Under the pieces are notes generated by a model. That model worked only from the letters and a program-made list of their open reading frames with translations. It made no database searches and had not been told where the DNA came from. The translations under genes were made by a program, and so were the position numbers. Shown here piece after piece: positions 20,623 through 43,819 of a stretch of DNA of 64,000 nt (the stretch's first letter is position 1; the number at the start of each line of letters is the position of its first letter). Origin of the DNA: an uncultured Bacillota bacterium (lineage in GTDB: Bacteria; Bacillota; Clostridia; Christensenellales; UBA1242); the NCBI GenBank assembly GCA_938034555.1, contig CALHLT010000025.1, forward strand, positions 27,469 through 91,468, in the 5' to 3' direction.

Positions 20623-20642
20623 TCCGAGCGTGTAAAACAAAA

Positions 20643-20676
20643 ACAGCAGCACTAAAATATTTTAGTCCTGCTGTTT
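20643..20676 (+). terminator. Terminator of the membrane protein gene
   Basis: acagcag.actaaaata/ttttagt.ctgctgt imperfect hairpin followed by a T-rich tract. Confidence 0.55.
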
Positions 20677-20711
20677 ATTTATTATTATTTTTATTATTAT
20701 TTTTATTTTTA

Positions 20712-20748
20712 TTATCAAGGCAGGGCTTTAACTCTAAGCCACACCACC
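20712..20748 (-). other. Orphan tRNA 5'-half-like fragment
   Basis: Reverse complement is GGTGGTG-TG-GCTT-AGAGTTA-AAGC-C-CTGCC-TTGATAA. It reads as acceptor 5' strand, a paired D arm and half an anticodon arm, then breaks off into AT-rich sequence. Confidence 0.5.
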
Positions 20749-20833
20749 AGGTGAAATGCCATTGTTTCGGAGTCTAATTAATAGGAGCCCAATTAAATAT
20801 AATTTTTGCTTAAAACCTTAGTACGGGGGTGAT

Positions 20834-20925
20834 CTCTCGCTGAGCCACAACAACAAATGCTGTTTTTTGATTGATTTTTACAGTGAATATGAGTGATGAA
20901 AAATTGTTGTTTTTGTTTTACCAAA
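20834..20925. repeat. Left copy of the ~92-bp direct repeat bracketing the island (outer att-like repeat)
   Basis: Aligns with 43008-43100 with about 13 differences by eye. Content is the tRNA 5' part, a 65-nt spacer and the ttaccaa junction. Confidence 0.7.
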
Positions 20926-21230
20926 ACTCTGCTCTAACATACAAGAGTTTCGCTCTATTTTCTAAACTGCCCATAAAATAAGAAAATTTGAGATATAAAA
21001 AATCAATTAGTGTAGTAAGATTTTAGTTTACTACACTTTTTTACACCTAAATTAACAATTTTAGTAAAATTAGGTGCTCTAAAACTATATAAAACTGCCT
21101 AAAACTTTTGTGAACTTTTCGTATTTGAAGTACATATTTACGCAAAAATTTTGTGAGTGAAATCAATAACTTACATTTTTTCTTATTAAATTTAGAATAC
21201 AACATAATATATAAGATAGTATACAAGATG

Positions 21231-21259
21231 TTGACTTTTTATTTTTTATTGGTTATAAT
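21231..21259 (+). promoter_or_regulatory. Promoter of the fic gene
   Basis: TTGACT at 21231-21236, a 17-nt spacer, TATAAT at 21254-21259, about 30 nt upstream of the ATG. Confidence 0.5.
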
Positions 21260-21290
21260 CTATTTGTATAAAAATAAGTGAGGTTTTTAA

Positions 21291-22280
21291 ATGGAAGATA
21301 AATATATTCCACCATATGAGATAACTGATGAAATGTTGGAACTTGTTTCCGAAATAATGGAAAATTTAGGCAAACTTTCGGGTGTTAATGAATTGGAAAA
21401 ATTACCAAGACTTCGCAGAGTGAGTAGAATAAAGTCTATCCACTCTTCATTGGCAATTGAAAACAATACACTTTCTATTGAACAAGTAACAGATGTTATC
21501 AATGGGAAAAGGGTTCTTGCTCCACAAAAAGATATTGAAGAAGTCCACAATGCTTTTAATGCTTACGAAAAATTAAGTGAAATAAATCCATATAGCATTG
21601 ATGATTTGTTGAAAATTCACGGCATTATGATGAATGGTCTTGTAAAGGAAGCAGGAAGGCTTCGCTCAGGACAAGTTGGAGTTTATAATCAAGATGGCAA
21701 AGTTGTTCATCTTGCTCCGCCAGCAGATTTTGTTCCACAACAGTTAGGACAACTTTTTGATTGGGTGAAAAACAGTAATGCAAATATGCTAATTAAATCA
21801 AGTGTTTTCCATTATGAGTTTGAATTTATCCACCCATTTAATGATGGTAACGGAAGAACTGGAAGACTTTGGCAAACAGCATTGCTTGCTAGTTGGAAAC
21901 CAATATTTGCTTGGATACCTATCGAAAGCATTATTAAAGATAACCAAGAAGATTATTACAATGCAATCACTTTATCTACTAGTCAGGGTAAATCTAATAT
22001 CTTCATTGAGTTTATGCTAGATGTAATAAACAAAGCAATTAAAGATATAACAACCGATACCAGAAATCACTACAACCATATTAACAATCAAATTACAGAA
22101 CTTATGAAAGTGATTGAAAGTTATCCACAATCAGCAACAGAACTCATGGAAAAATTAAACCTAAAATCTCGTTTAGGATTTAGAAAAAACTATTTGCAAC
22201 CTGCCTTAGACGCTGGACTAATTGGAATGACCGAACCCGACAAACCAACAAGCAAAAATCAAAAGTATTTTAAGATATAG
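21291..22280 (+). CDS. Fic family protein (class II, N-terminal inhibitory helix) with C-terminal winged-helix region
   Basis: Fic motif HPFNDGNGRTGR at nt 21831-21866. Auto-inhibition motif SLAIEN of the (S/T)xxxE(G/N) type upstream. Confidence 0.9.
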   Translation: MEDKYIPPYEITDEMLELVSEIMENLGKLSGVNELEKLPRLRRVSRIKSIHSSLAIENNTLSIEQVTDVINGKRVLAPQKDIEEVHNAFNAYEKLSEINPYSIDDLLKIHGIMMNGLVKEAGRLRSGQVGVYNQDGKVVHLAPPADFVPQQLGQLFDWVKNSNANMLIKSSVFHYEFEFIHPFNDGNGRTGRLWQTALLASWKPIFAWIPIESIIKDNQEDYYNAITLSTSQGKSNIFIEFMLDVINKAIKDITTDTRNHYNHINNQITELMKVIESYPQSATELMEKLNLKSRLGFRKNYLQPALDAGLIGMTEPDKPTSKNQKYFKI

Positions 22281-22291
22281 TAGGTGTAATT

Positions 22292-23038
22292 ATGGGCGGA
22301 TATGTAGAAATTGGAAAAATAGAATATATAAATGAAGACAAAACTCCAATGAATGAAGAAAAAGAAAAGTTTTTGAAATATTTAAACTTGTATAGAAATG
22401 CCGGCAATTTTATTTCAATCGCCTTAAACACTATTGACCAACTTACTAGCAAGAAAACAAAACTGGCACAATTTGCTCCTGCATTTGTAAATTGTGTTCA
22501 CTACTCTTTTTGGTCTACAAGTGTAATACTTTTAAATTGTTTTTATTCTCGTGGCGATGATTTGTCAATTTTTTCTTTTATGGAATACATAAGAAATAAC
22601 TACAACAAAATTTTTACTGGTAAGTTTTATGATATTTATATTCATTCAGACAGAAAAGAAACAAAAAAAATAAAATTTGGAAAAAAAGAAATTTTTGAAC
22701 GACTTAATCAATGTGAAAACATAATTAAAGAGAATAATGAATTATTGGAAAAACTTGATACATTTAGGAATGAAATGTTTGCACATTTCAGTGAAGACAA
22801 AAAGAACAAATTAGAAAATCAATACCTTAATATCAAAGAATTACAAGAACTTTTATCATTGACAGAAAAAATAATTAACAATTTAAAAATTCCTTATGAT
22901 AGAACTTTTGAAAGCTTTGAACCAATAAACTCAAAGGATATATTAGGAATTGAACACATTTTAGAATTATACGAAGAAAATCGTGAATTAATAAAAAGCG
23001 AACACATAAAAAAAATATTTAAAAATGAAGACAAATAA
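22292..23038 (+). CDS. Hypothetical protein with a HEPN-like Rx4-6H motif
   Basis: RNEMFAH at nt 22766-22786 within an all-helical-looking 248-aa ORF that starts 11 nt after fic. Confidence 0.4.
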   Translation: MGGYVEIGKIEYINEDKTPMNEEKEKFLKYLNLYRNAGNFISIALNTIDQLTSKKTKLAQFAPAFVNCVHYSFWSTSVILLNCFYSRGDDLSIFSFMEYIRNNYNKIFTGKFYDIYIHSDRKETKKIKFGKKEIFERLNQCENIIKENNELLEKLDTFRNEMFAHFSEDKKNKLENQYLNIKELQELLSLTEKIINNLKIPYDRTFESFEPINSKDILGIEHILELYEENRELIKSEHIKKIFKNEDK

Positions 23039-23052
23039 AGTCTTCTTTTTTG

Positions 23053-23481
23053 TTAGATATAAATTATCGATTTGTTTTGTTTTTGAGCATATTTTAGAGT
23101 GCGATAGGCTCCACTTTTGTAAGTTTCTTCTATGTGCCAAACGAGAATGTCACAGTGGTCTATTATCCACTCGTTTCTTTTTGTGATTTTTTGTTTGTAA
23201 TGCATTTCTTCTATCTCTGGAAGTATTGAACCATCATAGCATGATGGCAAATCATATTTTTCTTTGTCGTGATGATAATATGTTAAAACACGAATTAATT
23301 TGATGTGTGGATATTTATGTTTTAATTGTAAGACCGCATGTGCACACTTTTCATCAAAAGCACCATAGTGTCCGTCATAAAAGATGGTGTATCCTTTATT
23401 GATTAAATCTTCTAGAACTTCGGGCAATTTGTGGAAAAAGAAATAAGCCAATATTGTTAAAAAGAAAATTTTTAGCGACAA
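23053..23481 (-). pseudogene. SLOG/DUF1273 (YpsA-like) gene lacking its N-terminal ~25 codons
   Basis: The family core is present (GYTIFYDGHYGAFDEKCAHAVLQLKHKYPHIKLIRVL...DILVWH). The usual CxFTGHR N-terminus is replaced by unrelated hydrophobic residues at the junction with the next fragment. Confidence 0.5.
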
Positions 23482-23486
23482 TATAT

Positions 23487-23807
23487 GAATGGTTAAATGC
23501 TGCCGAATATATAGCTTTAAATGGCAACAATCAAATTATTCTATGTGAAAGAGATGTAAGATCGTTTAATAATACAATCAGATATGTGTTATACTTACAA
23601 TGAGTAGTAGTGGCAAAAGGTTTATGTGAGTTGCCAGTCATTATTGACCATTCCAATTCTGGAAAAATGAGAGAACTGGCAAAACCTATGAGTTTAGTAT
23701 CAATTGCTTGTGGATCGGAGAGCTTAATTATTGAAGCTCACTTAGTTCCAGAAAATAGGTTATCTGATTCTAAACAATTAATATATTTGAACTACAACAA
23801 ATATTAA
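23487..23807 (+). pseudogene. 3' fragment of a DAHP/KDO8P-synthase family gene with an in-frame stop
   Basis: EWLNAAEYIALNGNNQIILCERDVRSF...(TGA at 23601)...LPVIIDHSNSGKMRELAKPMSLVSIACGSESLIIEAHLVPENRLSD. This matches only the C-terminal third of the family. Confidence 0.65.
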
Positions 23808-23827
23808 ATAGTATAAAGGAGTACAAA

Positions 23828-24331
23828 ATGTCAATACGTGAAAAAAGAGACTTGTATGACCGAAACAGCAATTTGACTGGAAAAACCTACTTAAAAGGAG
23901 ATCCTATCCCTGAAGGATACTATCCCATGGTTGTGATGATTGCAATTCAGAATTCTGAAGGTAAATTTTTAATGCAAAAAAGAGTTCCTAGAAAAGGTGG
24001 CGACTGGGGTGTAACAGGTGGGCACCCTAAATCTGGAGAAACAACTGACCAAGGAATAATAACAGAAGAAATGGAAGAACTTGGAGTGGATATATCAAAT
24101 CAAAAGTTAGAAACTTTTTGCTCTGGTTGTGATGGAAAAGACTGTTACAAAATGTATTACACTAAGTTAGATTTAGATATTGAACAACTTCATATTCAAG
24201 AAGATGAATTGACAGAAGTAAAATGGTTTTCCATGGATGAATTGCAAGAAATGGTAAATAATAATGAGTTAAATCAAGATCAGGTTGACTTTTTTGCGAA
24301 ATGCACAAATTATTTAAATAACAAAAAATAA
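23828..24331 (+). CDS. NUDIX hydrolase
   Basis: Nudix box GGHPKSGETTDQGIITEEMEELGV. RBS AAAGGAG. Confidence 0.8.
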   Translation: MSIREKRDLYDRNSNLTGKTYLKGDPIPEGYYPMVVMIAIQNSEGKFLMQKRVPRKGGDWGVTGGHPKSGETTDQGIITEEMEELGVDISNQKLETFCSGCDGKDCYKMYYTKLDLDIEQLHIQEDELTEVKWFSMDELQEMVNNNELNQDQVDFFAKCTNYLNNKK

Positions 24332-24681
24332 AATTTAATATGGGCTACTTCGTTAGTCCATTTTTTATTTTTGCCGAGTAATATACGGAATCTCATTTTG
24401 AAAAGCTGAAAACTTTTAAAGGCAATATTGTGCAAGTTCTTAAAATGGTTGATGATTTTATTACCGATTTGGAAGAAAAGTGGTCAAATGGGAAAAAACA
24501 AATAAAAATTAAAAAAATTTAAGTTTTTAAAAAAATACTTAATTTTTGGTTAAAAAATGTCATTATATATAGAGGGACTAAATATTCAAGCAAATAACTG
24601 TAGCTACGATACTTCTTTTTATTTTGAACTACAGTATATTTTTACTAGCAAAGAAAAATGACAATAACTTTGTACTTCTGA

Positions 24682-25077
24682 CGTATACCTGTTACGGATA
24701 GTGTCCTAGAAACATTAAAACAATGGAAAGAAAAGCAAAGTAAAAGACAAGAAACCAATCCAAATGTAACAGCAATTTTAACTGCGCCAACACCATTTGT
24801 GTTTGCTAACGATAACGGAAGTTATAGGACTTATTATGGCACAAGAGTAATCTTTGATAGGTTTAAACGAAGAAACGGACTAAATAAATACCACATTCAT
24901 TTTCACGGACTTCGCCATACATTCTCAAATATGCTTTTTGAAATGAACGAAAATCCAAAAGTTGTACAACAACTTTTAGGTCACCGTGATGTGAAAACAA
25001 CAATAATGAACTATAACTCAGTTGACCAAGTATACTTTGAAAAAACCAGAAACCTTATAAATGAACAGTTTAAATAA
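24682..25077 (+). pseudogene. Tyrosine integrase remnant (C-terminal ~130 codons only), paralog of the integrase at 39384-40778
   Basis: Open from the stop at 24679. RIPVTDSVLETLKQWKEKQ...HFHGLRHTFSNMLFEMNENPKVVQQLLGHRDVKTTIMNYNSV aligns with the intact integrase. Nt 24896-25005 are about 90 percent identical to 40431-40540. Confidence 0.85.
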
Positions 25078-25081
25078 ATTT

Positions 25082-25304: not shown

Positions 25305-25562
25305 AGGTTTACATATATGCTTGATCAAATAAAAATGGTGTTGTGTAGTAATTTGAATATTTGATAGGCTATTTGTAATAGTTTTTGTTGATTTTTAAGC
25401 AAAGAATAAGTCTAAAACTGAGATGGTAAGAAATTCAGCTTCTACTTTTTCTGATTATTATAAGACAAAATGCAATTATTATGGTATAATAAAAGCGTAA
25501 TTGTGAGTTAAATCTATAAACTTACTATTTTGATTATTAAAAATTTTAAACAGAGGAGAAAA

Positions 25563-28500
25563 ATGAAAAACAAAACAACACCGCAAATCAATTATGAAAG
25601 ATATAAAAGTGATTGTGAAAAATTGGATGTGGCAATTAAAGATAAAGATATTAGGAATATCGCAGTAAGTGGTATTTTGGGGGCTGGGAAAAGTAGTCTT
25701 ATAAAAACGTATGATAAAGCTTTTAATAATAAGAAAGGTAAAAAAATTGTTAACAATTACAATAAAAAGCAGAATTCAAAAGATTCTTCCAACACTTTAG
25801 ATGACCAGTTGGAAAAAATTCATGGGAAATCAATAAATAAATCTATAAGAATATCTTTAGCGAATTTTAATGTGGTTAATGATAAACAATTGAAAAAAGA
25901 AAAGAAAGATTCGCTTAAAGGTAATAATGAAGCGACTTTAACTAATATCACAGATCAAATAAAGAAAGATATAGAAAATTTGGATTACTATAAGGAAGAC
26001 AGAGAAACCAATTTAGATGTCAATGAGGTTGAAATTGAAAAAAGTTTATTGCAACAATTCATTTTTAATGTTCCTTCATGTGCATTACCAGATTCGCATA
26101 TTAGAAGAGTTGAAAAAAAGTTTGCTTTTAAAACTTTTGCTTTGGTTTCTTTTATTATATTCTTGATTTCGGCTGCCGTATATTTTACAAATAAATTTAA
26201 TATATTATGGACTAGTGATATTATTGTTGACAAAATTATTATATCTATTGGAATTCTTTCATTATTGGTACTTTTGAGTATTTTACCTTTTATTTTTAAA
26301 TTAAAATCTTTAAAAGTTGATACATTTGAAATAAAAGCTGAATATGCTGGGAATGATAAACAAGATTTGCTAAATAAATATTCTGATGAAATAATATATT
26401 TTTTCGAAAAATCAAAAGTTAAGATCGTTTATTTTGAAGATTTAGATAGGTTGCCTAATTTAAATATTTTTAACAAATTAAGAGAAATAAATTATTTACT
26501 TAACAACACAACTTATATAAAACATAAAATAGTTTTTGTTTACTGTGTTTCAGATGATATTATTTCTGATAGTGAAGAGAGAAATAAGTTTTTTGATTTG
26601 ATTCTTACAGTTTCACCATATTTAACTCAGGAAAGTGTGAAAAAATATATTAGTCAAGAACTTGGTGATAAACAAAATGTTAAGGTTTCAGATTTTTGTG
26701 AAAATATGTCAAGGTTTATTACTGATTCTAGGATGCTATCCAATATTATTAATGATTTTAAAGAAATAGTAAAAAAGAATAAATTGTCTCAAACAGAAGA
26801 TAAGATAAAAGCCTTCACATTATCTATTTATAAAAATTTATATTATTATGATTTTAATAAGTTAAATAACAATAATGATTGTATTTCAAAATCGTTCACA
26901 TTAGTTGATAATTATAAAAACAATGAGATTGAAAAATTGAAAGATGACATCAATAATAAAAATAAGATTTTAAAAGAATCTTTCTTAAATAAGGAAGCAA
27001 GGATACATTTTTTCAAAGAAAGGCTTATAGGTATTTTAACATTAAATATTAATAATACTCATATGGTAAGACAGGGGCAGCAAGGTAAAAATATTGCGGA
27101 CATAAACAGCCTTGAAGATTTTGAATCCAATGAAAACTTTTATGTGTATTTGTCAAATTATAATTTGAGTTATTATAGCAGTAAATCTAATATTGTAAAC
27201 TATTGGAACGAGCATAGTGATGTGTCTTTTGATTTGTATAAACAAGAAATTTTGTTTAGTGATGAAGATAAACGAAATGATATAATTAATGAAATTGAAT
27301 TACTCAATCAAAAAATAAAAGGTATATATACTTTGCCCGTTTCTAACTTTATGAGAGATTATAAATGCTCATTAACTCAAGATACAACAAAATTTTTAAA
27401 CATAAGTTTTTTAAATGGATATATTGAAAGTGATTATAGGCAATTTATTTTTGGACATGACAATGATTATCTTGTTCAACAAGATGATATTTTTGTTCGC
27501 TATAATAATTTTGGTTCAAATAATGAGTTGGTAAAAAATAACTATGATTATCAGTTGACTAATATACCTGTTATTGTTAGCCAGATACAGGAAAACAGAT
27601 TTGGCAACAAAACAATTCTTAACGATATGATCGTAAGTTTTGTATTAAATAGTCAAGAAGGATCTTTGAAAAAGAAAAAAGAAAATTTAAAAAACTTATT
27701 GTTAAAGGATGATGAAGAGGTAGCTAATTATTTTGAACACTATATTAGGGATAGAGAATATTCAGATTTCTATAATCTTATAAAAACAATTGGTATACCT
27801 AAAGTCTTATTTAAGGTATTCTTGCGTATTATTGGTTCAATTTCTTTAGAAAATCAAAATAAGTATATGCAATTATTATTAGAGAGTATTGAATGCATTG
27901 AAGGGGAAGATCAAGAAATTTTCAAATTAATAAACAATTATACGGATTGGAGTGGAATAGATTTTACTGGTGAAATAATTGAGAAATTAAAAATTAGAGC
28001 ACAAAACGGAAGTTGTAAATTAAAAATAGAGAGTATTTCAAAATTTGATGAGACTTCATTTGAGTTAATTATTAAGAATCAAGTATTTGCTATAAATTAT
28101 GAGAATTTATCTGTTATTGCAAAACGAAAATATAATGTAAAATTGGAAGGTTTATTACAGAGTGTATTAGTTGAACAGGGGTCTGCAATAAAAAAATTTA
28201 TTTTAGAAAATATACAAGAATTTTTAAAAATAGTCCCAAATTCGCATTTGCAAGAGAAAGAAATAATAGCACTTCTAAAAGAGAATAATTTGACAACTGA
28301 TATTAAACTTGAACTTATAAAACAAACAGATTTTGTGATAGAAAAAGGGTTCGATGAGTTACATCAAGATATTATAAGTGAAGTAATTAAAAATGATAAA
28401 TTCTCTAAAAATATTGGGACGGTTTTTCATATTTATGAAATTTGTGGTTTTGACATCATAAAAACATATTTTTCTGAAAAACATTTCAAATCATTAATAA

Positions 28501-29409: not shown

Positions 29410-29494
29410 ATGTGCAAAAAGTATGCAATTTATATGCAAATATTTTTTGGCAAAATTTTGGCAATAAAAAAAGCCCATAAAATGGGCGTTTTAG

Positions 29495-29539
29495 TGGAGC
29501 TTATGACGGGAATCGAACCTGTGACCTCCACCTTACCAA
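29495..29539 (-). other. Displaced tRNA-Thr 3' half (att site of element E2)
   Basis: 40 of 45 nt match 42956-43000, running from the CCA end to the anticodon-loop sequence ttaccaa. Identity stops exactly there. A native-looking terminator (gcccat/atgggc plus a T run on the minus strand) lies at 29468-29492. Confidence 0.75.
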
Positions 29540-29647
29540 CACACGAACCCTAGCACAAAACTTGTGCCCACACCCCAAAACCACCCATAAATACTAGCAT
29601 TTTCGCTAGTATTTTTTTATTAGATGCATAATCAAATGAAATTTGTG

Positions 29648-34471: not shown

Positions 34472-36601
34472 ATGAAAGATAATTCGATATTGAACAAGGC
34501 GCGATATTCGGAAAATACTGATGAATGGTATACTGATTATAAAACAGTTGAAGAAGAATTATCTCATTATGTAAATCAATTTTGTGATAAAATAGTTTTA
34601 TGTAATTGTGATGACCCATATAAATCAGCATTTGCTAATTACTTTTTGAAAAACTTTAATGTTTTACAGTTAAAAAGATTGATATGTACATCATACAAAG
34701 GCTCTAGAATTGTTGATGAATTCAATTTGAAAGATAATAACGATTTAATTTTAGATAAGAAGTTTGCCTATGTAATGATTGTCAACGAAATAGATATTGA
34801 AGAAGAAAAGGAAATTAGTGATGATAAAATTTTAAATTTTTTAAGAAATAAAAGGCTGGTTAAAAAATTAAAAGGTGATGGTGATTTTCGTAGTAATGAA
34901 TGTATTAGGTATTTAAAAGAAGCAGACATTGTTGTTACTAATCCACCTTTTTCAAAATTTACCGAACTGTTTTCACTTCTTGTAAAATATAAGAAAAAAT
35001 ATTTGATTATTGGAAATCAAAACGCCATAACATACAAGGAAGTTTTTCCAATAATAAAAAGTGGTGAAGCTTGGATTGGTTATAGATTTGGAGATATGGC
35101 ATTTAAAGTTCCTAACGATACTCAACCAAGAGAAACTAGATTTTGGGTTGATGAAAACGGTCAAAAATGGCGAAGTTTAGGAAATGCAATGTGGTTAACA
35201 AATTTGGATACTGAAAGGAAGCATTTAAAGCTGGATCTTACTTCTTATTATAACCCTAAAAAATATCCAAAGTTTGATAATTATGATGCAATTAATGTAT
35301 CAAAAGTTATGGATATACCCAAAGATTATGCAGGTATTATGGGGGTCCCACTTACTTATTTAAAATATCATAATGAAGAACAATTTGAAATAGTTGGCGA
35401 AGCAAATCATGGCACTGATAATGAATTTGATTTATTTAAACCAACAATCAATGGTAAAGAATTATTTAAAAGGATATTAATCCGAAACAAGAAATGTATG
35501 TTAGATGAAAAACAATTTAAAATTTTAGACTTGTTTTGCGGTGCCGGAGGTATGTCTTACGGAATGCACCAAAACCCTCACTTTAAAACAGTCGTAGCGT
35601 TAGATATTGAAGAAAAACTAGCAGAATCTTTAAAGAAAAATATGCCAGAGGTAAATGTTATTATTGGAGATATTAAGAATCCAGAAGTAAAAGATAAAGT
35701 AGTAGAATTGTCTAGAAAAAATGGTGTCAATATGATAATTGGTGGTCCACCTTGTCAGGGTTTTTCTTTAAAAGGCAAGAAACTAGGATTAAAAGACCCA
35801 AGAAATTTCTTGTTTGTAGAATATCTTAATTTAGTTGAGAAATTACAACCTGAAGTTTTTGTAATTGAAAATGTTAAGGCACTTTTATCAACATCTAATG
35901 GTTGGTTTAAAAACGAAATTGTATCTGCAATCGAAAAGTTGGGATATAAGGTAGATGTTGGCGTTCTTAAAGCAACTGATTTTGGTGTTCCACAAACGAG
36001 AGAACGAACTATATTTATTTGTTGTAAAAGCAATAAGATAGAGCTTCCATTACCTACCGTAAGTAAGCCTATTACAGTTCGAGAAGCCATAGAAGATTTA
36101 GCATATTTAGAAGCTAATGAAGGAGATTTTGAACAATGTTATAAAAATACAGCCAAATCTAAATATCAGCGAGAGATGAGAAAAAATTCGGCAAAATTAT
36201 ATAATCACAAAGCTTCAAATCATGCAAAAATTGCAATAGACAAATTAAAGATGATTCCACCTGAAAAAGGTAAAGAATATCTTCCAAAAGAATTATTGGG
36301 AAAACAAAAATTTCATTCAACTTGGGGTCGATTAAAATGGGATGAACCTTCACCAACAATAGATACTAGATTTGATGCCGCTTCTAACGGAACCAACAAT
36401 CACCCATTTTTGAATAGAACTATAACACCAAGAGAAGCCGCAAGATTACAATCTTTTGATGATAATTTTATTTTTTACGGAACAAAAGTGGCTGTTAGAA
36501 CACAAATAGGAAACGCGGTTCCTCCATTAATGGCAAAGGCGATTGCTGATCAAATTTATAAAACTTTATCTAATAAAAAAAACAAAGGAGATGAAAACTA
36601 A
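34472..36601 (+). CDS. Fused DNA methyltransferase: N-terminal EcoRI-methylase-like N6-adenine domain plus C-terminal C5-cytosine (Dcm-type) domain
   Basis: N domain: DEWYTDYKTVEEEL...VLCNCDDP and NPPF at nt 34940-34951. C domain: FKILDLFCGAGGMSYG, GGPPCQGFS (catalytic Cys codon at 35753-35755), ENV, QTRER and GNAVPP. Confidence 0.9.
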   Translation: MKDNSILNKARYSENTDEWYTDYKTVEEELSHYVNQFCDKIVLCNCDDPYKSAFANYFLKNFNVLQLKRLICTSYKGSRIVDEFNLKDNNDLILDKKFAYVMIVNEIDIEEEKEISDDKILNFLRNKRLVKKLKGDGDFRSNECIRYLKEADIVVTNPPFSKFTELFSLLVKYKKKYLIIGNQNAITYKEVFPIIKSGEAWIGYRFGDMAFKVPNDTQPRETRFWVDENGQKWRSLGNAMWLTNLDTERKHLKLDLTSYYNPKKYPKFDNYDAINVSKVMDIPKDYAGIMGVPLTYLKYHNEEQFEIVGEANHGTDNEFDLFKPTINGKELFKRILIRNKKCMLDEKQFKILDLFCGAGGMSYGMHQNPHFKTVVALDIEEKLAESLKKNMPEVNVIIGDIKNPEVKDKVVELSRKNGVNMIIGGPPCQGFSLKGKKLGLKDPRNFLFVEYLNLVEKLQPEVFVIENVKALLSTSNGWFKNEIVSAIEKLGYKVDVGVLKATDFGVPQTRERTIFICCKSNKIELPLPTVSKPITVREAIEDLAYLEANEGDFEQCYKNTAKSKYQREMRKNSAKLYNHKASNHAKIAIDKLKMIPPEKGKEYLPKELLGKQKFHSTWGRLKWDEPSPTIDTRFDAASNGTNNHPFLNRTITPREAARLQSFDDNFIFYGTKVAVRTQIGNAVPPLMAKAIADQIYKTLSNKKNKGDEN

Positions 36602-37473
36602 TGAATACACAAATGGCTTATTTGATAGGCATGATTTTAGGCAATGGAGAAGTCCAAAGAAAATCAGACGCTACAACAATTACAGTTGAATTACCTCATA
36701 AGAATTTAATTGATGATGAGGGACGTGAGGTTTCGGTATATGTAAAAAGCAGTTTGGCTGACATTAGAGGAATTGTTGAACCTTTAATTGGTTATTCATT
36801 ACCTATATCTCAAACAAAGAGGGCTACTCAGTTTTCATTTACAATGCCAAATGCAGATTATACGATGCGAGAAATTTTAAGATTTATTGGGAATGGTGTA
36901 CATCACTCAACGATGACAATGAATGATGAATTATTTGGAATGAAAACAGATGAAAAGAAAGAATTGTTAAGAGGAATTGCAGATGTAACTGGTTATATTC
37001 GAAAAAGCAACATTGCTTTTGGTCAAGATGGTTGCCATAGGGTTTATATTGAAATTCCGGGCAATTGGCAAATGGTAATAGACATAGCAAATATGTTAAA
37101 AGATTTAGATATACCTGTCCAAACGATTGATTTTGGTCATCCAAATTTTAGAGATTCTAATTTAAAGAAATATAATGAGGGTAAACCATACTATTGGAAA
37201 AAAGAACATCAAATTAAAATTTGGGCTAATGAGTTTTTACCTATTGGATTTAATATCGTTCATAAGCAAAGAGCTTTAGAAAAATATGCTGATGAACTAT
37301 TAGATTATCTAGATGAGAAAAAAACACATCAATTTTATTGGCAAAAAACAATTAGAAGAAAAGAAAAACCTATACATCCTATGGAAAATGATGAATCTTT
37401 GCCTTTGAGTATTAGAGGTAAACATTATGAATCTTGGACGGATTTGGCAAAGGATTTGGGTTATGGCGAATAA
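36601..37473 (+). CDS. Degenerate double-motif LAGLIDADG-like protein in the restriction-enzyme position
   Basis: The ATG overlaps the methyltransferase stop (TAATG). Contains MAYLIGMILGNGEV and ELLRGIADVTGYI, two LAGLIDADG-like helices about 115 aa apart, both lacking the canonical terminal acidic residue. Confidence 0.45.
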   Translation: MNTQMAYLIGMILGNGEVQRKSDATTITVELPHKNLIDDEGREVSVYVKSSLADIRGIVEPLIGYSLPISQTKRATQFSFTMPNADYTMREILRFIGNGVHHSTMTMNDELFGMKTDEKKELLRGIADVTGYIRKSNIAFGQDGCHRVYIEIPGNWQMVIDIANMLKDLDIPVQTIDFGHPNFRDSNLKKYNEGKPYYWKKEHQIKIWANEFLPIGFNIVHKQRALEKYADELLDYLDEKKTHQFYWQKTIRRKEKPIHPMENDESLPLSIRGKHYESWTDLAKDLGYGE

Positions 37474-37966
37474 TGTGGCAAAAGAAGTTGAATTGTATGC
37501 AGAAATGACAGTTTGGCTAGATACATATCTTAAAGATAAATATAAAAGTAAAAAATGCAAAATAATAGTTGTCGACTGTCATTCTGTCTATTTAGATTCT
37601 GTTTTAGGGAAATATGGGATAATAAAATATTATCCACAAGTAGTTGGATTAAAAATTGAAATTGATGTTTTAGGTATGGTTATTTGGAATAATAAAGCAG
37701 AAATATATTTTATAGAAGCAAAGAAAACACAACTTAATTTGCAAAATTTAGGACAGCTTCAAATATATTGTAAATTATGTGATCCTGAAGGAGCTTACTT
37801 GTTATCTTCTGCTGGTTTAGGTGGTTTGGACAAAGTTTTAAAAATATTAAAAAGAGAAGATTTATTAGACTTTGGTTCTGGAAAAAGAATTAAAAAGATT
37901 AAGGTTGGCAGATGGGATTTATCAAAACATTCTCTAGATAATCACTCTGTAATACCAAAAATTTAG
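37463..37966 (+). CDS. Small PD-(D/E)xK (restriction-endonuclease-fold) protein
   Basis: ATG at 37463 overlaps the upstream stop by 11 nt. Motif order is E (helix EVELYAEM), D (IEIDVLG), ExK (FIEAKK) and Q (LGQLQIY). Confidence 0.55.
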   Translation: MANNVAKEVELYAEMTVWLDTYLKDKYKSKKCKIIVVDCHSVYLDSVLGKYGIIKYYPQVVGLKIEIDVLGMVIWNNKAEIYFIEAKKTQLNLQNLGQLQIYCKLCDPEGAYLLSSAGLGGLDKVLKILKREDLLDFGSGKRIKKIKVGRWDLSKHSLDNHSVIPKI

Positions 37967-37971
37967 CAAAA

Positions 37972-38003
37972 ACACTCAATCTTAATTGATTGGGTGTTTT
38001 TTT
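37972..38003 (+). terminator. Terminator closing the 33.7-38.0 kb operon
   Basis: acactcaat/attgggtgt stem with one G-U pair, followed by TTTTTT. Confidence 0.55.
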
Positions 38004-38073
38004 GTTGCGTTAATAGAAAAATTTGAATTTTAACAAAATACTTTTACTTTTTTTAATTAAATTTTTAAAAAAC

Positions 38074-38315
38074 ACCCTGACGATTTGAAAAAATATGTAG
38101 TTAATAAAGTGAGGAGATTAAAAAATTTAAAGAAATTTTTCAAAAAGTGGCAAAAAATGGGCAACGATTTTAGAAAACGTGTGGTTAACATTATAGAGAG
38201 GTATAAAAAAATTTTTAGTTTTTTTAAACTTTTTTTGAAAAACGGCTCAAAAGGGGTTAACGATTTCGAATATCGAGTGGTTAACATTATAGAGGGAGAA
38301 TTTTTTTTGAAAGGC
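38074..38315. repeat. Three degenerate tandem repeats, period ~90 bp
   Basis: Units start near 38074, 38160 and 38256. Units 2 and 3 share the core ACGATTT..GAA...GTGGTTAACATTATAGAG(A/G)G. A related motif, ggttaaaaaatgtcattatatatagaggga, occurs at 24548-24577 in E1. Confidence 0.6.
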
Positions 38316-39127
38316 ATTATAGTTCTCTTACAAAGAAAAATATGCTGGTGTTATTAAAAGCAAACAACTTAAACAATCAAACATATCTAACAAGAAAGAG
38401 TGTCACCCATTTCCCATTCCCATAATATTTATAAATATATTTTTAATTATTCTTTCATTGTTAGATAAGAAAAGAAAATTTAATAAAGAAAAGAATTTTA
38501 AGTGCTGGCATGGTTGATAGACGTGAATGCAAAACTTATTCCGGCCGTTTTAGAAAGATGAACAATTAAGAAATCAATTTGTGGTTTCTTTTTTTGTTGT
38601 GAGAAATTTATAAAAGGAGGTATAAAGCCAAAATCAAGCCATTATGACAAGAAAATAGTGTAGACAGATAAATTATCATCAAAAGGAGGATTGGGCAAAT
38701 ATGGACTAATTAAACAACTTTAACACTTATTTCAAAGTTAACACTTATGCAAGTCCTGATAGAAATAAAAATATTTTTTAAATTATGAAGAATTATGAAA
38801 AGTGATGAAAGTTGTAATTATGCATTGAAATTTCGAGGAAGAATGGCGTTTATTTTAACGAGCAGGATAAGAGATTGGCTCAAAATGACTTTTTAAGTGC
38901 TTGAAAGCCTTGAAAATACTGGTATTTTTACGATTCAGCTAAAAATAAAAAAGCATCATTTTTGAGTCATCTCCCTTAACAAATTACAAGTGTGAAACCC
39001 ACTTTATTTTTATGGTAGTAACCTACCACTTCTATCTCGCTTTGATAGTGGATAGATTTTAATAAATTTAGATTTAGAAAGAGATTGTAGAAAGAAAAAA
39101 TTTTACAAACAAAAGGAATATTAAACT

Positions 39128-39391
39128 ATGAATTTAAACAATACAAATCTAAATTTAAACAACTTAATACAATCGGAAGTTGACCGAATTTCAACTAAAT
39201 ACAATAAAGATTTTTTGGATTGTGAAGACCTTATTAAAATCACTGGACTTGGCAGAGATAATGTTAGAAATTTACTTAGAAGCAAATCTTTTCCAACAAC
39301 AAAAGTTGGTAAACGACAAGTCGTGAGTGTGCTAAACTTTGTTACATGGCTAACACTAAACAACAACCAAAGCGAGGTTCAAAATGGCTAA
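39128..39391 (+). CDS. xis: Excisionase-type helix-turn-helix protein
   Basis: CEDLIKITGLGRDNVRNLLRSKSFPTTKVGKRQVVSV matches the Xis/MerR-like HTH pattern. Its 3' end overlaps the integrase start. Confidence 0.6.
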   Translation: MNLNNTNLNLNNLIQSEVDRISTKYNKDFLDCEDLIKITGLGRDNVRNLLRSKSFPTTKVGKRQVVSVLNFVTWLTLNNNQSEVQNG

Positions 39392-40778
39392 GAACAAAGT
39401 TTTAACTAAAACACGTGGTGCCAATAATGAAGGCAGTATTTTTAGACGTAGCAGTGACAATCGTTGGGTTGGAAGCATCACCACTGGAATTAATGAAAAT
39501 GGCAAACAAATTAAAAAAGTTGTGTATGGACGAACACGGGCGGAAGTTTCAAAAAAGTTGCTTGAAATCAGTGGACGAATTCGAAGCAATTCTTATGAAA
39601 TGATTGAAGGTCAAACTTTTGGCGAACTTATGAACGAGTGGCTTATGGTGTTTAAAAAGTCAGCAGTAACACCCCGAACTTTTGAAGGTATTATTCGAAA
39701 TTTCAAATTACACATTCAGCCACAAATTGGCAATATGAAAATTTACGAGGTGGATACCTATGTTGTTCAAAAAGTGATGAACAATATGATTGACCAAGAT
39801 TACAGTGTCAACACCATAAAAAAGAACAAACATTTGCTCGCCCAATTTTTTGAGTACGCCATAGACAACAAATGGGTAACGCAAAACCCTGTTTACAAAG
39901 TTAAGGTTAGGGCTCACGACAAAGTCCACACTAATAGCGATAAATATAAAGCACTTACTCCCGAAATACGTGTAAAGTTTTTGGAAGAACTTGCGAAAGA
40001 TGATGGTAATTTTATTAAGCCGCTTTGCATTTGTTTGATGTTTGGCGGACTTCGAATTGGTGAGGCCTTGGCACTAAAATGGGAAAATGTAAATTTTGAA
40101 AATAAGACCTTAAAAGTAGAACGTGCGATTACTCAAATTCCAAAGTTTGATAACGATGGCAAAGTGATAAGTCGTGTAACAGTTATTGCAGACACAAAAA
40201 CCACTTGCAGTGTGCGTGAGATTCCAATTGCAGACATTGTTGTTGAAACGCTCCAACGTTGGCGAGAAAAACAAATTGAAAGACAAAATACAAATCCAGA
40301 TGTTACGGCTGATTTAACCGCCAAAAACGCCTTTATTTTTGCCAATGATGATGGAAGTGTGAGAACATATTTTGGCAGTCGCAAAATCTTTGATGGCTGG
40401 AAGAAACGACATAAATTAACCAATTACAATATTCATTTTCACGGACTTCGCCATACATTTTCAAATATGCTTTTTGAAATGAATGAGAACCCAAAAGTTA
40501 TTCAACAACTTTTAGGCCATCGTGATGTAAAAACAACAATCACTGTTTATAACTCTGTTGATAGCGAATATATTCGACAAACAACTGACAAGTTTAACGA
40601 AAGAGTTAAAGAAGACCAAATGCTTTTAAACGATAAAAAGCGAGAAGAAATTCTTGAACAACGCAAAGACGAGTTTGTTGCAGATATGGACGATGACGAA
40701 TTTGATGAAATTCTCACAAAACTTCTTGAAGAGCGCAAAGAAAGAAGATATAAAAAAGAAAGTGATATGGAGATGTAG
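39384..40778 (+). CDS. int: Tyrosine recombinase / phage-type integrase with N-terminal arm-binding domain
   Basis: N-terminal NNEGSIFRRSSDNRWVGSITTG (AP2-like arm-binding segment). Catalytic R (GLRIGEAL), HxxR (HGLRHTF), H (LGHRDV) and Y (TVYNSV). Confidence 0.9.
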   Translation: MAKNKVLTKTRGANNEGSIFRRSSDNRWVGSITTGINENGKQIKKVVYGRTRAEVSKKLLEISGRIRSNSYEMIEGQTFGELMNEWLMVFKKSAVTPRTFEGIIRNFKLHIQPQIGNMKIYEVDTYVVQKVMNNMIDQDYSVNTIKKNKHLLAQFFEYAIDNKWVTQNPVYKVKVRAHDKVHTNSDKYKALTPEIRVKFLEELAKDDGNFIKPLCICLMFGGLRIGEALALKWENVNFENKTLKVERAITQIPKFDNDGKVISRVTVIADTKTTCSVREIPIADIVVETLQRWREKQIERQNTNPDVTADLTAKNAFIFANDDGSVRTYFGSRKIFDGWKKRHKLTNYNIHFHGLRHTFSNMLFEMNENPKVIQQLLGHRDVKTTITVYNSVDSEYIRQTTDKFNERVKEDQMLLNDKKREEILEQRKDEFVADMDDDEFDEILTKLLEERKERRYKKESDMEM

Positions 40779-40850: not shown

Positions 40851-42680
40851 ATGAAAGGAAACAAAGAAATATTTGAAGAGTTTTTTATAACTATGATGGA
40901 AAGTAAATTTTCTGGGAGTACAAGCTATGTAGAAATGCCTAATAATAATTGCTTTAGATTCTGTTTAAAAGAGTGTATTTATTGTTTAAGTAAAAATGAA
41001 AATAAAGAAAGTAATATAAGAGATTATTCAATCGCTGTATTTAATAATTTTTATAAGTTTATGCAAAAAGATATTATATTTAAAAATATCAATGATTTTG
41101 AATATAGAAATTTACTTTTAAAATTAAAGCATTATTCAGAAGGAAGTAATAATGAAGTCTCAAAACAAAAATTAGCGTATTTTGATAGAATTAATAATTA
41201 TTATTCAAAAAAATATTTTGAAAAGTGTTATTTAATGTTAATAGAATTATATAACAGTGAGAGCCCTTTAGACTTCGACGATTTATATTTTATTGAAAAT
41301 GTTTTTTTTAATGAACTTTTAGCATTAAAAATGAATTACCAATTTATTGGTTATTCTTTAGAATTGTATAAAAAGGGTAAGTTTAATAATATCTTAGATT
41401 ATATAAAATATTTATATTATCATAATAGAGACAATATGGAAATTTATATACCTTTGAAAAATTGTAGCGAAAAAGACTTGAAATTTTTAAGGAAAAATCA
41501 AGAAATCATAATTATTGAATCAGTTGTCTATTGTAAAACTTATGAAACTCGTTTTATAGATTTTTATTCATGGATCGAAAAACAAATTATTAGAATAGAA
41601 TCATTATTTAATGCACTTAGATTTTATACAGAAAGTGAATTGGATTTTGATTTGGAAAACGAGATAATAATACACTCTTCTTATTTTGATGATAAGATAA
41701 AAATCCCTTTTAAGAATATTATTTCATATTCTAATAAATTAGTTAACTATTCAAATATGCCAACTTTGATGGAGTCATTAAATAAATTAAAACAAGTTGA
41801 TAACACATTGAGTTTTAATGACGATATAACCGATGAAGGTGCAAATATAGATAATAAATTAAAAAGTGGAACTAAAAGAATAAATACTGAGTTTAATGAA
41901 AGTAGAAAGATACTATATTATAAAATTTTAAATATTTTGAGTTTCGTTGAAAAGGATAAAGATTATTTAAATCACAACTCATTTGTTGATAATTGGTCCG
42001 CATTGGAAACATTGTGTGGATTATCTGGAATTAAATCGGGGTATGAAGCGGTGAAATATTTTGTTCCTAAAATTATTCGTTCAAAAATTATCCTTAAAGA
42101 TATAAATGACGTTTTTTATAGATATTTTTCTGTAAGTAATCCTAGTTTTAGAGCTCAACAATTTATTACCTGCATTAAAAACGGAAATTTCGAATTTGCA
42201 CGAATAAATAATGCATATTTTATGTATAAATTAAAAAACTATGAAAAGGTTTTTAAAAGTATAAAAACATTTGAAAATTATTTAAAAAACATAGAAGATA
42301 TAATCTCTTATGATATAATGAGAATTTACATGATAAGAAATGAATATGCTCATGATAGCAATTTAAATGTTTTTAATTCTATGCAACAATATAAACTAAA
42401 AGTTATCGTTCCACTTGTTTTAGACGAGTTTTTTAAGGTTTTAAATAAAAACATTGATAATTTTGATACAGAAGAAGGTTTATCGTTCGATGTATTTAGC
42501 GATATATTGCAAAGATATGATGCTCAATGTGGAGCTTTTGAACTTATAGATAAGGGCTTAAAAATAAATAATGGTGGCAAAGATTTAAAAATTGATGTTA
42601 AAAATTATACAATAAAAGAAGATGAGTTTATTTTTAATGTATTAAAAAATAATACGCAACCATTTAAAAAATATAATTAG
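40851..42680 (+). CDS. Large HEPN-motif protein (Abi/ApeA-like candidate), 609 aa
   Basis: RNEYAH (Rx4H) at nt 42336-42353 in the C-terminal quarter. The N-terminal ~480 aa have no motif I recognise. Extremely AT-rich. Confidence 0.5.
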   Translation: MKGNKEIFEEFFITMMESKFSGSTSYVEMPNNNCFRFCLKECIYCLSKNENKESNIRDYSIAVFNNFYKFMQKDIIFKNINDFEYRNLLLKLKHYSEGSNNEVSKQKLAYFDRINNYYSKKYFEKCYLMLIELYNSESPLDFDDLYFIENVFFNELLALKMNYQFIGYSLELYKKGKFNNILDYIKYLYYHNRDNMEIYIPLKNCSEKDLKFLRKNQEIIIIESVVYCKTYETRFIDFYSWIEKQIIRIESLFNALRFYTESELDFDLENEIIIHSSYFDDKIKIPFKNIISYSNKLVNYSNMPTLMESLNKLKQVDNTLSFNDDITDEGANIDNKLKSGTKRINTEFNESRKILYYKILNILSFVEKDKDYLNHNSFVDNWSALETLCGLSGIKSGYEAVKYFVPKIIRSKIILKDINDVFYRYFSVSNPSFRAQQFITCIKNGNFEFARINNAYFMYKLKNYEKVFKSIKTFENYLKNIEDIISYDIMRIYMIRNEYAHDSNLNVFNSMQQYKLKVIVPLVLDEFFKVLNKNIDNFDTEEGLSFDVFSDILQRYDAQCGAFELIDKGLKINNGGKDLKIDVKNYTIKEDEFIFNVLKNNTQPFKKYN

Positions 42681-42731
42681 AATCACCTTTTTAATAATTA
42701 TTAAAAATAATTAATTAAGCCTACAATTTGA

Positions 42732-42747
42732 CACCTATTGACACCTA
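42732..42747 (+). promoter_or_regulatory. Putative arm-type integrase binding site (right arm)
   Basis: cacctattgacaccta is identical to 29648-29663. A further direct repeat, ttttgtgtacctaa, occurs twice at 42827-42840 and 42849-42862. Confidence 0.4.
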
Positions 42748-42780
42748 TAGTGGCAGTTTTAGGGAGTTTTAAGGAGAATT

Positions 42781-42819
42781 AGACCGAAAGTTGGCAAGTT
42801 CAATTTTCGGTCTTTTTTT
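42781..42819 (+). terminator. Terminator after the 609-aa gene
   Basis: agaccgaaa/tttcggtct stem followed by TTTTTTT. Confidence 0.6.
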
Positions 42820-42955
42820 ATGCAATTTTTGTGTACCTAAAATGACAATTTTGTGTACCTAATGTATTTTTTGAAGAGAGTCGTGCCTTAAAAATTTGCA
42901 AATAAAAAATCGCTAAAAGCCTTTATTTATCGGCGTTTTAGCGACTTTTGTTTAA

Positions 42956-43030
42956 TGGAGCTGGTGACGGGAATCGGACCCGTGACCCCCACCTTACCAA
43001 GGTGGTGCTCTACCGCTGAGCCACACCAGC
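42956..43030 (-). tRNA. tRNA-Thr (anticodon GGU), CCA encoded, non-canonical T loop
   Basis: Cloverleaf: GCTGGTG / GCTC-AGCGGTA-GAGC / CCACC-TTGGTAA-GGTGG / GGGTC / ACGGG-TCCGATT-CCCGT / CACCAGC-T-CCA. The T loop has C where U55 is expected. Confidence 0.75.
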
Positions 43031-43100
43031 AAGTGCTGTTTTTTAATTGATTTTTGCGGTGAATTTGAGTAGTAAAAAAGTGCTGTTTTTGTTTTACCAA
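43008..43100. repeat. Right copy of the ~92-bp outer direct repeat
   Basis: See 20834-20925. Covers the tRNA 5' part, the 65-nt upstream spacer and the ttaccaa junction of the next 5'-half fragment. Confidence 0.7.
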
Positions 43101-43127
43101 GGCAGTGCACCGCTGAGCTATAGCAGC
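43094..43127 (-). other. Orphan tRNA 5'-half-like fragment upstream of the intact tRNA-Thr
   Basis: Reverse complement is GCTGCTATAGCTCAGCGGTGCACTGCCTTGGTAA. It ends in the anticodon loop, after which the 65-nt spacer begins. Confidence 0.5.
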
Positions 43128-43819
43128 ATTTTAGTCGTTTGCGTTTGGATTTTAAAAAGTTAAGCAATGAATTTTTGTGCATCCTTGGACATTTCAACAG
43201 GTTGAATTGCATTTGGGTGGGGCTTTGGCTTAAAACAATTTTGCAGATGCTTTTTTAACAGCGCGAGGCACAATTTTTTACATTTTGCGCCGCCCAAATA
43301 TTTGTGCAAGAGCTAAAATTTGTTTTACGAAGGAATGCACCTCTATTTAGCGTTTGATTTTTCGCCTTTAATTTTTGAATTTTTAAGTTCTTAAAGGCGG
43401 CGAATACTTTTTTTGTACTTAAATCCTAACGCATGTTAGAGTCTACCTTATTTTGTTTTTTATGTCAAGAAAAATGGAACATATTAATTTAATATTTATG
43501 AGAAACAAGCAGAGGGGTGAATTTGTTAAGTGTGTTCTTCGTGATTTTCTAATTTAATTGTTTTAAACTTGAATTAATTTTCTATTTCTAAAAAAACATC
43601 ATATTAAGCAAACTAAGCAGATTGGGAAGTCTATCTATTCTTTAATTCTTCTTTTTGTTTTATTAAAAATTTATTGCGTTTTCTTTTGCTTTTGTAAGGT
43701 TGGGACTATAAAGTTGTTTTTTGCCTTTTTGATGTCATTTACTCGGTCTAATTTTTTCTTAAACTTTTTAGATTTCACTAAAAATTTTTAAAGGTTATTA
43801 AGTGGGGGCGCAATAAATT

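Follow-up and report, generated by a model that had tools for sequence, protein, structure and literature searches.

A tandem pile of integrase-borne defence islands that probably replace the resident tRNA-Thr(GGU) in an uncultured Bacillota bacterium

The island and its tRNA-derived ends

The sequence analysed here is a 64,000-nt stretch of contig CALHLT010000025.1 from an uncultured Bacillota bacterium (gut Clostridia, Christensenellales-like), referred to as the window, in which an AT-rich island of about 22 kb adjoins a threonine tRNA gene, tRNA-Thr(GGU). The features of the locus are listed in Table 1. We read the region as a tandem pile of defence islands borne by tyrosine integrases, from a family whose members replace the resident tRNA, and give this reading a probability of about 0.72. 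Contigs and loci from other assemblies are denoted by L and three digits.

The block has a GC content of 28.1% (20623-43093), against 35.3% and 34.7% in its flanks, and scans with Pfam, PADLOC and NCBIfam show every gene inside it to be accessory. This bears out the AT-rich accessory block between core genes proposed in an initial annotation of the same sequence. On the left, homology to other strains and relatives stops at about 20616, and the limit of 20622 given in that annotation stands; a palindromic terminator-like hairpin marks this boundary, and its arms look like the start of the a-type spacer described below. The right edge had been placed at 43360. It has to be moved to 43093 or 43100, because 43131-43819 is about 99% conserved across all strains of the clade. 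Host DNA on this side consists of a GNAT gene (43820-44302) and the adjoining 689 nt, which we call the leader.

The live tRNA-Thr(GGU) lies at the right end of the island and is 100% identical to the integrase-linked tRNA of several other species. Its anticodon loop holds the heptamer TTGGTAA on the tRNA strand (ttaccaa as written in the window), here called the inner core or L2. A 63-nt a-type spacer separates the tRNA from a second TTGGTAA, the outer core or L1, on whose other side stands a dead tRNA-Thr 5' half of the host, 3 nt short in the D arm. L1 and this half (43094-43127) are the last sequence common to all strains of the clade, and none of the retrieved sequences was seen to hold the 3' partner of this half. 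At the left end there are two further 5' halves, relics e and d, with spacings of 106 and 100 nt, each ending in a degenerate core. Relic d has its own a-type spacer, which leads to an exact core heptamer; here the far end of one element meets the spacer of an older resident. The same type of x-core-spacer junction, where x stands for the far end of an element, is also found in L086, L091, L112, L126 and L132.

Two repeat pairs had been pointed out in the initial annotation, and both exist. The outer pair (20815-20924 and 42991-43100) is identical at 91 of 110 positions, with a BLAST E-value of 1e-26. The inner pair (29495-29539 and 42956-43000) is identical at 40 of 45, and in a longer alignment (29490-29539 with 42951-43000) it reaches 88% over 50 nt with E = 5e-12, so that both alignments are significant. 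Both pairs end at ttaccaa (20918-20924, 29533-29539, 42994-43000 and 43094-43100), which supports a crossover in the anticodon loop. Enrichment of TTACCAA by itself is not significant (13 found, 16 expected); the signal lies in the context of the heptamer. The view of the outer pair as attL and attR of the left-hand element, by contrast, did not hold. The outer repeat consists of relic d, its a-type spacer and the core at 20918-20924, and is a paralogous unit of spacer, tRNA 5' half and TTGGTAA, belonging to an array seen at both ends of the island; such units are piled up at this position in dozens of species. The earlier inventory of relics was also incomplete, having missed the 5' halves at 20712-20748, 20818-20854 and 43101-43127 and a probable older one near 43325-43345.

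The right-hand element, E2, extends from 29540 to about 43000 or 43093, depending on the unit it brought, and is an intact element sitting in the tRNA of an older one, E1. Its xis and integrase are intact at 39128-40778 as annotated, with complete catalytic, SAM-like and central Pfam domains. The far end of E2 (x2) starts directly beyond a tRNA 3' half and core, and 29495-29532 would be the 3' part of E1's tRNA, displaced on the arrival of E2. The junction of 3' half, ttaccaa and x2 recurs in other genomes, in agreement with the earlier proposal that E2 is the later arrival and lies inside E1's tRNA, and x2 is 77-90% conserved in other loci. The whole 64 kb contains only three copies of the arm motif TGTG[TC]ACCTA, all on one strand, and these cover both predicted arms of E2.

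E1 had been taken for a single element. The best reading is that of a dead composite of at least two, probably joined by a deletion near 24672-24682, because the far end and MobL-type backbone of E1 are of one type while the integrase tail and the arm next to the tRNA belong to another; the motifs of the latter arm differ from the GTGTAGTAA-type motifs of the far end. The E1 integrase lacks its first 279 residues. What remains is 67% identical to the E2 integrase in amino acids (BLASTP E = 5e-63); at the DNA level 24729-25025 matches 40265-40561 with 76.6% identity over 303 nt (E = 1e-58), and the best 110-nt window (24895-25004) reaches 91.8%, close to the 90% estimated before. Relics d and e would be leftovers of residents older than E1.

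Table 1. Features of the island and its borders in the window, and what each assignment rests on.
Feature	Coordinates	Strand	Evidence or remark
CrtO-like acyltransferase, last host gene left of the island	20065-20622	+	Pfam CrtO 2e-17
Palindromic terminator-like hairpin, left boundary	20633-20684	.	Inverted repeat, 86% complementary
Relic e, decayed: core ttatcaa (20712-20718) and tRNA-Thr 5' half	20712-20748	-	Repeat family, 76% identical to live copy
Relic d, decayed: core ttagtac (20818-20824) and tRNA-Thr 5' half	20818-20854	-	Direct repeats, alignment
a-type spacer of relic d	20855-20917	-	Part of outer repeat
Core heptamer (TTGGTAA on tRNA strand), x-core-spacer junction	20918-20924	-	E1 far end meets older resident's spacer
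E1-left, remnant of MobL-type element	20925-24672	+	Pfam, PADLOC, motif and backbone comparison
E1-left far-end arm motifs GTGTAGTAA and TTACTACAC	about 21010-21036		Match tRNA-proximal arm of L097 element
SoFic (E1-left)	21291-22280		PADLOC 2e-45
HEPN AbiU2-like (E1-left)	22292-23038		Pfam/PADLOC
DAHP-synthase gene fragment (E1-left)	about 23415-23807
NUDIX (E1-left)	23828-24331
Backbone relic (E1-left)	24369-24672		86% identical to L005, L035 and L061 (MobL-type backbone)
Dead integrase tail, residues 280-409 of E2 integrase	24682-25077	+	Pfam Phage_integrase 2e-18
Tmn-like/YobI P-loop NTPase, slot between int and tRNA of E1-right	25530-29288	+	Pfam YobI-ATPase 1e-61; PADLOC Tmn 4e-34
Displaced tRNA 3' half (29495-29532) and core (29533-29539)	29495-29539	-	40/45 against live tRNA
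E2 far end (x2), one arm-type site TGTGCACCTA at 29644	29540-29700	+
PDC-S60/DS8-like phosphoesterase-STAND NTPase	30000-33116	+	PADLOC PDC-S60 5e-91
PDC-S57 (T5orf172/DUF4357)	33717-34397	+	PADLOC 1e-87
EcoRI-type N6A and C5 DNA methylase fusion	34472-36601	+
Two ORFs after the methylase, candidate nucleases	36601-37473, 37427-37966	+
ORF-poor backbone module, 1.16 kb, upstream of xis	37967-39127	+	Conserved in E2-like subfamily
xis	39128-39391	+	Intact
Tyrosine integrase	39384-40778	+	Pfam Phage_integrase 6e-24, Phage_int_SAM_3, Phage_int_M; PHROG 1 integrase 4e-62
Orphan 609-aa protein, variable slot between int and tRNA	40851-42680	+
Terminator of cargo gene	42781-42813	+
Two tRNA-proximal arm-type sites	42830, 42852	+
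Live tRNA-Thr(GGU)	42956-43030	-	ARAGORN; Rfam tRNA 68.7 bits
Inner core L2, inside live tRNA	42994-43000	-
a-type spacer between outer core and live tRNA	43031-43093	-
Outer core L1, second TTGGTAA	43094-43100	-
Host's dead tRNA-Thr 5' half	43101-43127	-
Best promoter-like site: TTGACA-17-TAGACT	43440-43468	-	About 310 nt upstream of host 5' half

Occupants of the site and relatives of the integrase

Contigs from at least 10 other gut metagenomes share the right flank at about 99% identity, and the dead host half with TTGGTAA is present in every one of them. These strains share host DNA through GCTGCTATAGCTCAG...CTGCC-TTGGTAA, followed by one or two units and then by differing elements. At least seven different elements occupy the same tRNA beside this flank, as expected from the earlier view of a composite of integrase-borne elements stacked at a variably occupied tRNA-Thr(GGU). 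They include elements with integrases of 455-464 aa, an 87-aa xis and varied cargo in the slot between int and tRNA; elements with 311-aa integrases, one of them with a reverse transcriptase; and one with a 388-aa integrase and an AAA_21 protein. An unoccupied tRNA-Thr site, which the initial annotation had suggested looking for in relatives, was not found with the CrtO-like, GrpB, GNAT and ASCH proteins as anchors: every strain seen was occupied, and distant relatives lacked synteny. The reverse-transcriptase element, seen at this tRNA site in L008 (11370-18013) and L154 (7857-12384), combines a 323-aa RVT_1 protein with the 311-aa integrase and is possibly a retron-type defence element.

A public 84.6-kb contig (L006, scaffold_148) repeats the whole island with 0 mismatches and differs by an 11-nt indel near 20690, in an AT-rich stretch, and by one extra 100-nt unit of spacer, 5' half and core beside the live tRNA (L006 11168-11447 compared with window 43000-43130). 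This independent contig makes it most improbable that the composite is an artefact, in which a chimeric metagenome contig was joined at repeated tRNA pieces, and the type of junction between E2 and E1 also recurs in other samples and species. What such an artefact would account for is that two assemblies of what is essentially one genome have different unit counts, and that several contigs of the same species (L002-L004) break right after the CrtO-like gene. The one-unit state of the window results either from deletion between identical 37-nt repeats or from assembly collapse. The two-unit version gives a simple history, in which E1's tRNA brought the first unit and E2 the second.

Other occupants show what arrives with an element. 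Directly after the host half, L010 has a spacer of unrelated sequence and then a different complete tRNA-Thr(GGU), in which the acceptor and anticodon stems co-vary between both halves, and L005, L016 and L097 likewise have other complete tRNA variants after the host half. The complete tRNA and its spacer therefore arrive with the element. The initial annotation had E2 supplying only a new 3' half; elements of this family bring the whole tRNA with its spacer.

Among species-representative genomes, 80 were found to encode a relative of the E2 integrase, and almost all of these are uncultured Clostridia/Christensenellales-type gut metagenome-assembled genomes. Among annotated phages and plasmids no integrase was more than 31% identical (nearest among 50,697 phage records at most 31%). 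tRNA-Thr(GGU) adjoins int in the layout of the window in 57 of the 80 loci, and 52 loci were assessable, having enough sequence upstream of the tRNA. In 42 of these a core with a tRNA-like 5' half before it stands 38-70 nt upstream of the tRNA; four have such a core with non-tRNA DNA before it, and six have a classical junction with no upstream core. A second anticodon-loop core thus stands about 62 nt upstream of the integrase-linked tRNA in 46 of the 52 loci. Up to three relics are present in one array, and they often represent tRNA variants found as the live gene in other species.

The spacers are linked to what follows them. Among 79 distinct units there were 413 pairs with a common spacer cluster; 254 of these share the downstream 5' half and 83 the upstream one, and the spacer therefore belongs with the tRNA after it. 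The same block of spacer and tRNA, about 90% identical, follows different host promoters and halves in different species. This finding also bears on the idea that the 5'-half arrays are a host feature, grown by local tandem duplication or unequal crossing-over with no import by elements. The period is regular at 100 nt, in line with such growth, neighbouring units in one strain can be 90-94% identical, and the one-unit difference between near-identical assemblies indicates that the number of units can change locally. The units within one array, however, often differ in both tRNA-Thr variant and spacer family, in combinations that are live elsewhere, and duplication in place does not account for a block shared behind different host promoters across species. 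We regard it as very unlikely.

Of the 79 units, 53 have a core-to-core distance of exactly 100 nt, and in the others it is 78-80, 88-91, 97-101 or 107 nt. The steps are of about one helical turn, which hints at a phasing constraint, although a few indel events may explain the length classes instead. A motif like AAAATCGTCGAACATTTGGTTCGT stands right before tRNA-Thr 5' halves in L072, L020, L022, L036, L087 and L097; in several species these belong to host tRNA-Thr genes, and in L072 the motif ends an element-borne spacer. Because of this double occurrence we suggest that the spacers may have begun as captured host leader sequence.

Far ends of the form 3' half-core-x are present in the window and, with the same x2, in L020 and L024; other types of x occur in a dozen loci. 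A metagenome scan for core plus x2 returned 13 far ends like that of E2, of which ten continue into a 3' half and three into spacer and tRNA. Among the latter type, the x2-spacer-tRNA junctions of L126 and L132 are tandem junctions, because they carry decayed residents. In L112, whose tRNA is intact, x2-core-spacer-tRNA is flanked on either side by related arm motifs of the GGTACA type, and this contig represents either an attP or a tandem of like elements. In L060 (11400-11675) the integrase-linked tRNA is chimeric and may be non-functional: its anticodon stem is mismatched (5' CCACC against 3' GGCAG), and the matching 5' half is a relic 100 nt upstream. Such a chimera is the footprint that would be expected of an element leaving through the inner core L2. 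Both cores thus appear to be recombination-competent.

The orientation of the locus also varies. In sister strains whose left flanks are 94-98% identical, and in a relative at 84% amino-acid identity, tRNA-Thr(GGU) and island lie directly downstream of the CrtO-like gene on the plus strand, inverted relative to the window (L016 3990-4830, L017 13221-13752, L097 10540-11330 and L098 7466-7965, compared with window 20616-20700 and 43131-43819). These strains have lost the CrtO stop codon, giving read-through products of 191-216 aa. The opposite arrangement, beside the CrtO-like gene, is also found in UMGS687, a 95%-identical representative genome. It looks ancestral, because the relative at 84% shares it and a relative that carries the GNAT gene lacks a tRNA-Thr in the vicinity. 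A simple recent inversion is not supported: only about 70 nt of the promoter core align between the two leaders.

A proposed replacement model for integration

At the junctions of the window, the host 5' half and TTGGTAA are followed by spacer, and x2 and TTGGTAA by the old 3' half; neither is a tRNA. From the near junction (host half-core-spacer) and the far junction (x-core-old 3' half) it follows that attB would be a tRNA and attP would have the form x-core-spacer-tRNA-arm. Seen from the outer core, the complete tRNA-Thr(GGU) is on the side of the element, and spacer and tRNA travel together.

We propose that recombination takes place at the 7-nt anticodon loop, and that the element carries two cores: L2, in a complete tRNA-Thr(GGU) beside the int-proximal arm, and L1, about 62 nt upstream of that tRNA. 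Recombination of L1 with the loop of the resident tRNA would split the resident gene without rebuilding it. Its 5' half would remain upstream as a dead relic, its 3' half would go to the far end of the element, and the element-borne tRNA would become the working copy. Each new insertion would add one unit of spacer, 5' half and core, giving the 100-nt array. Any core of the array might then act as target or as excision partner, and the shared cores would yield tandem elements, x-core-spacer junctions, orphan units and chimeric tRNAs. The circle junction should read GTGCTGTTTTTGTTTTACCAA joined to CACACGAACC (spacer-core-x2), with the tRNA on the circle. An arrangement in which upstream elements supply only a 5' half was considered and rejected, as int and cargo always lie beyond the 3' end of the tRNA.

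For the window, we infer a history in three steps. A MobL-type element at an upstream core would have split off an older array, of which relics e and d remain; a second element, with Tmn-like cargo, would have been fused to the first by deletion, giving E1; and E2 would then have entered E1's tRNA.

The closest competitor is the classical model of tRNA integration, in which the element carries only the 3' part of the tRNA. The outer repeat of 92-110 nt would then be attL and attR of E1, E2 would have swapped the 3' half alone, and the extra 5' halves would be incidental; the circle junction would be CCCCCACCTTACCAA joined to CACACGAACC (3' half-core-x2). This model predicts the inner 45-nt repeat exactly. 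It also agrees with the single unit between host half and live tRNA in the window and with the plain host promoter-tRNA-element junction in six loci of the family, and the distances of the arm sites fit a core at L2 better. However, it cannot make the 5' half-core-spacer junctions that are present in 42 of the 52 loci. The imported complete tRNAs with co-varying halves (L010, L005, L016), the x-core-spacer junctions and the linkage of the spacer to the downstream half are left unexplained by it. Moreover, it finds the outer repeat on the wrong side of the core: the repeat consists of a 5' half and upstream DNA, and yet stands at the end distant from the tRNA. On balance we consider the classical model unlikely.

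Several points weigh against tRNA replacement, to which we nevertheless give preference. The junction of L112, a candidate for the circular form, could equally be a tandem junction. The window has one unit where the near-identical contig has two, and E2 could equally have entered classically via L2. In the reconstructed attP, the flanks of L1 have no obvious dyad resembling an anticodon stem, and a core at L1 would stand about 240 nt from the closest arm sites on the tRNA side, a long distance for a lambda-type attP. The six family loci with a classical junction have no unit. The inverted orientation of tRNA and island in L016, L017 and L097 is left unexplained. Finally, the assemblies are mostly short-read metagenomes, in which 100-nt repeats are easily miscounted.

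A more specific form of the replacement model can be put forward tentatively. The attachment site would hold a whole working tRNA in one arm, with core spacing in steps of about 10-11 nt (79, 89-90 and 100), and integration would permanently retire the resident 5' half. If this were true, the host would depend on a tRNA borne by the island, and this dependence would stabilise defence islands in an addiction-like manner; past invasions could be read in order from the relic array, as from a ledger; and the relic cores would offer extra landing pads for the tandem accretion of such islands.

Known parallels, cargo and neighbouring features

The closest known parallel to the island family is the tRNA-dependent lysogeny of actinobacteriophages such as Fionnbharth and other Cluster K4/L phages, in which the common core is short, the tRNA is not rebuilt, and a phage tRNA of the same isotype complements the loss (Guerrero-Bustamante & Hatfull, mBio 2024, PMC10865867). 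Both systems have a tyrosine integrase that targets a host tRNA gene. The islands differ in having no phage genes and in carrying defence cargo, and they are found in uncultured gut Clostridia. In Fionnbharth the replacement tRNA is several kb from int (PMC10865867), whereas in the islands it is about 62 nt from the proposed core and oriented as the target. Two apparently usable cores, 100-nt arrays of dead 5' halves and tandem elements also set the islands apart from what that paper describes, and full-text literature searches returned no description of such 5'-half arrays.

Reiter et al. in 1989 and Williams in 2002 are said to have described tRNA-integrating islands and prophages with crossover in the anticodon loop. 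Like classical tRNA islands, the elements studied here have a tyrosine integrase by the tRNA gene, a 7-nt anticodon-loop crossover, a displaced 3' fragment at the far end and tandem islands at one tRNA. Classical islands, as collected in the Islander database (PMC4383910), supply only the 3' part, restore the gene and leave 3' fragments; here, by contrast, complete tRNAs are imported and 5' fragments accumulate upstream. The small int-xis backbone, variable cargo and strain-specific occupancy are shared with integrative and mobilizable elements (IMEs) and hotspot defence islands. Some relatives (L005, L097) resemble IMEs further in having a MobL relaxase; E2 differs, since no relaxase, replication or transfer gene was found among its genes. 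As in hotspot defence islands, the cargo matches models for SoFic, Tmn, PDC-S57, PDC-S60/DS8-like and restriction-modification methylase proteins.

Integration by tRNA replacement has so far been described for a few groups of actinobacteriophages, and the present family would extend it to defence islands free of phage genes, widespread in uncultured Clostridia of human and animal guts. It would explain a recurring oddity, namely arrays of half-tRNAs with a 100-nt period upstream of a tRNA gene, and make each relic array an ordered record of the element types that have visited a lineage. Island finders that seek only displaced 3' fragments would miss these arrays or misplace the boundaries. If the host tRNA halves are lost, as appears to be the case here, the island tRNA may be indispensable, which would help to explain the persistence of defence islands at the hotspot.

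Defence-type PADLOC matches are clustered in the island and comprise, besides those in Table 1, a PDC-S07 match (5e-9), while no phage structural, lysis or replication genes were found among the island proteins with Pfam and PHROGs. The cargo would thus consist of candidate anti-phage genes clustered as a defence island. Its best NCBIfam match is DS8_antiphage at 5e-53, with 180 bits, where the curated cut-off is 790. New defence genes, such as that for the 609-aa orphan of E2, may be worth seeking in the variable slot between int and tRNA. This protein had no match in Pfam, PADLOC, NCBIfam, PHROG or PDB and has only 10 similar clusters in a collection of 5.8 billion proteins; it contains an invariant R496-N-E-Y-A-H501 (Rx4H, HEPN-like). 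Its AlphaFold model, built from seven sequences, has a mean pLDDT of 53.6, too poor for a fold search.

The ORF-poor module upstream of xis holds two 63-nt direct repeats (38136-38198 and 38232-38294). A repeat motif ahead of xis and int had been noted for both halves of the island; it is confirmed only for E2. The module is about 91% identical overall, and 38564-39057 is conserved at 95-99% across seven E2-like elements, which exceeds the conservation of the integrase gene. Rfam gave no match to the module, whose role could be that of an oriT, of a regulatory region or of an RNA.

In E1-left, only the C-terminal half of the DAHP-synthase reading frame is homologous (Pfam 1e-21; PDB 3pg8 2e-27). 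This half, from about 23415, is broken by a TGA and overlaps a weak SLOG-like ORF on the other strand. A public call of a 260-aa 'DAHP synthase' with four in-frame TGA codons (23025-23807) might suggest TGA recoding. We reject this in favour of a gene fragment; the TGA within the homologous half aligns with Ala, and long core ORFs have no in-frame TGA.

As for transcription, a consensus scan of the spacer revealed no sigma-70-like promoter, and a conserved TAT just before the tRNA start is too near to it for a -10 box. Because the spacer has no promoter-like site, we infer that the live tRNA is probably transcribed through the relics from the far-upstream host promoter at 43440-43468, whose core is conserved upstream of tRNA-Thr in relatives. 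The 689-nt leader has no Rfam match. It contains look-alikes of a degenerate core with a spacer start: one at 43325-43345, with ttacgaa and a 5'-half-like stretch, is the probable older relic mentioned above, and a second at 43644-43668, upstream of the promoter, has ttattaa and aacaaaaag on the other strand. Perhaps the leader as a whole is made up of very old relics. The window encodes another threonine tRNA, tRNA-Thr(CGU), on the minus strand at 4130-4205, about 16 kb left of the island, and no element adjoins it.

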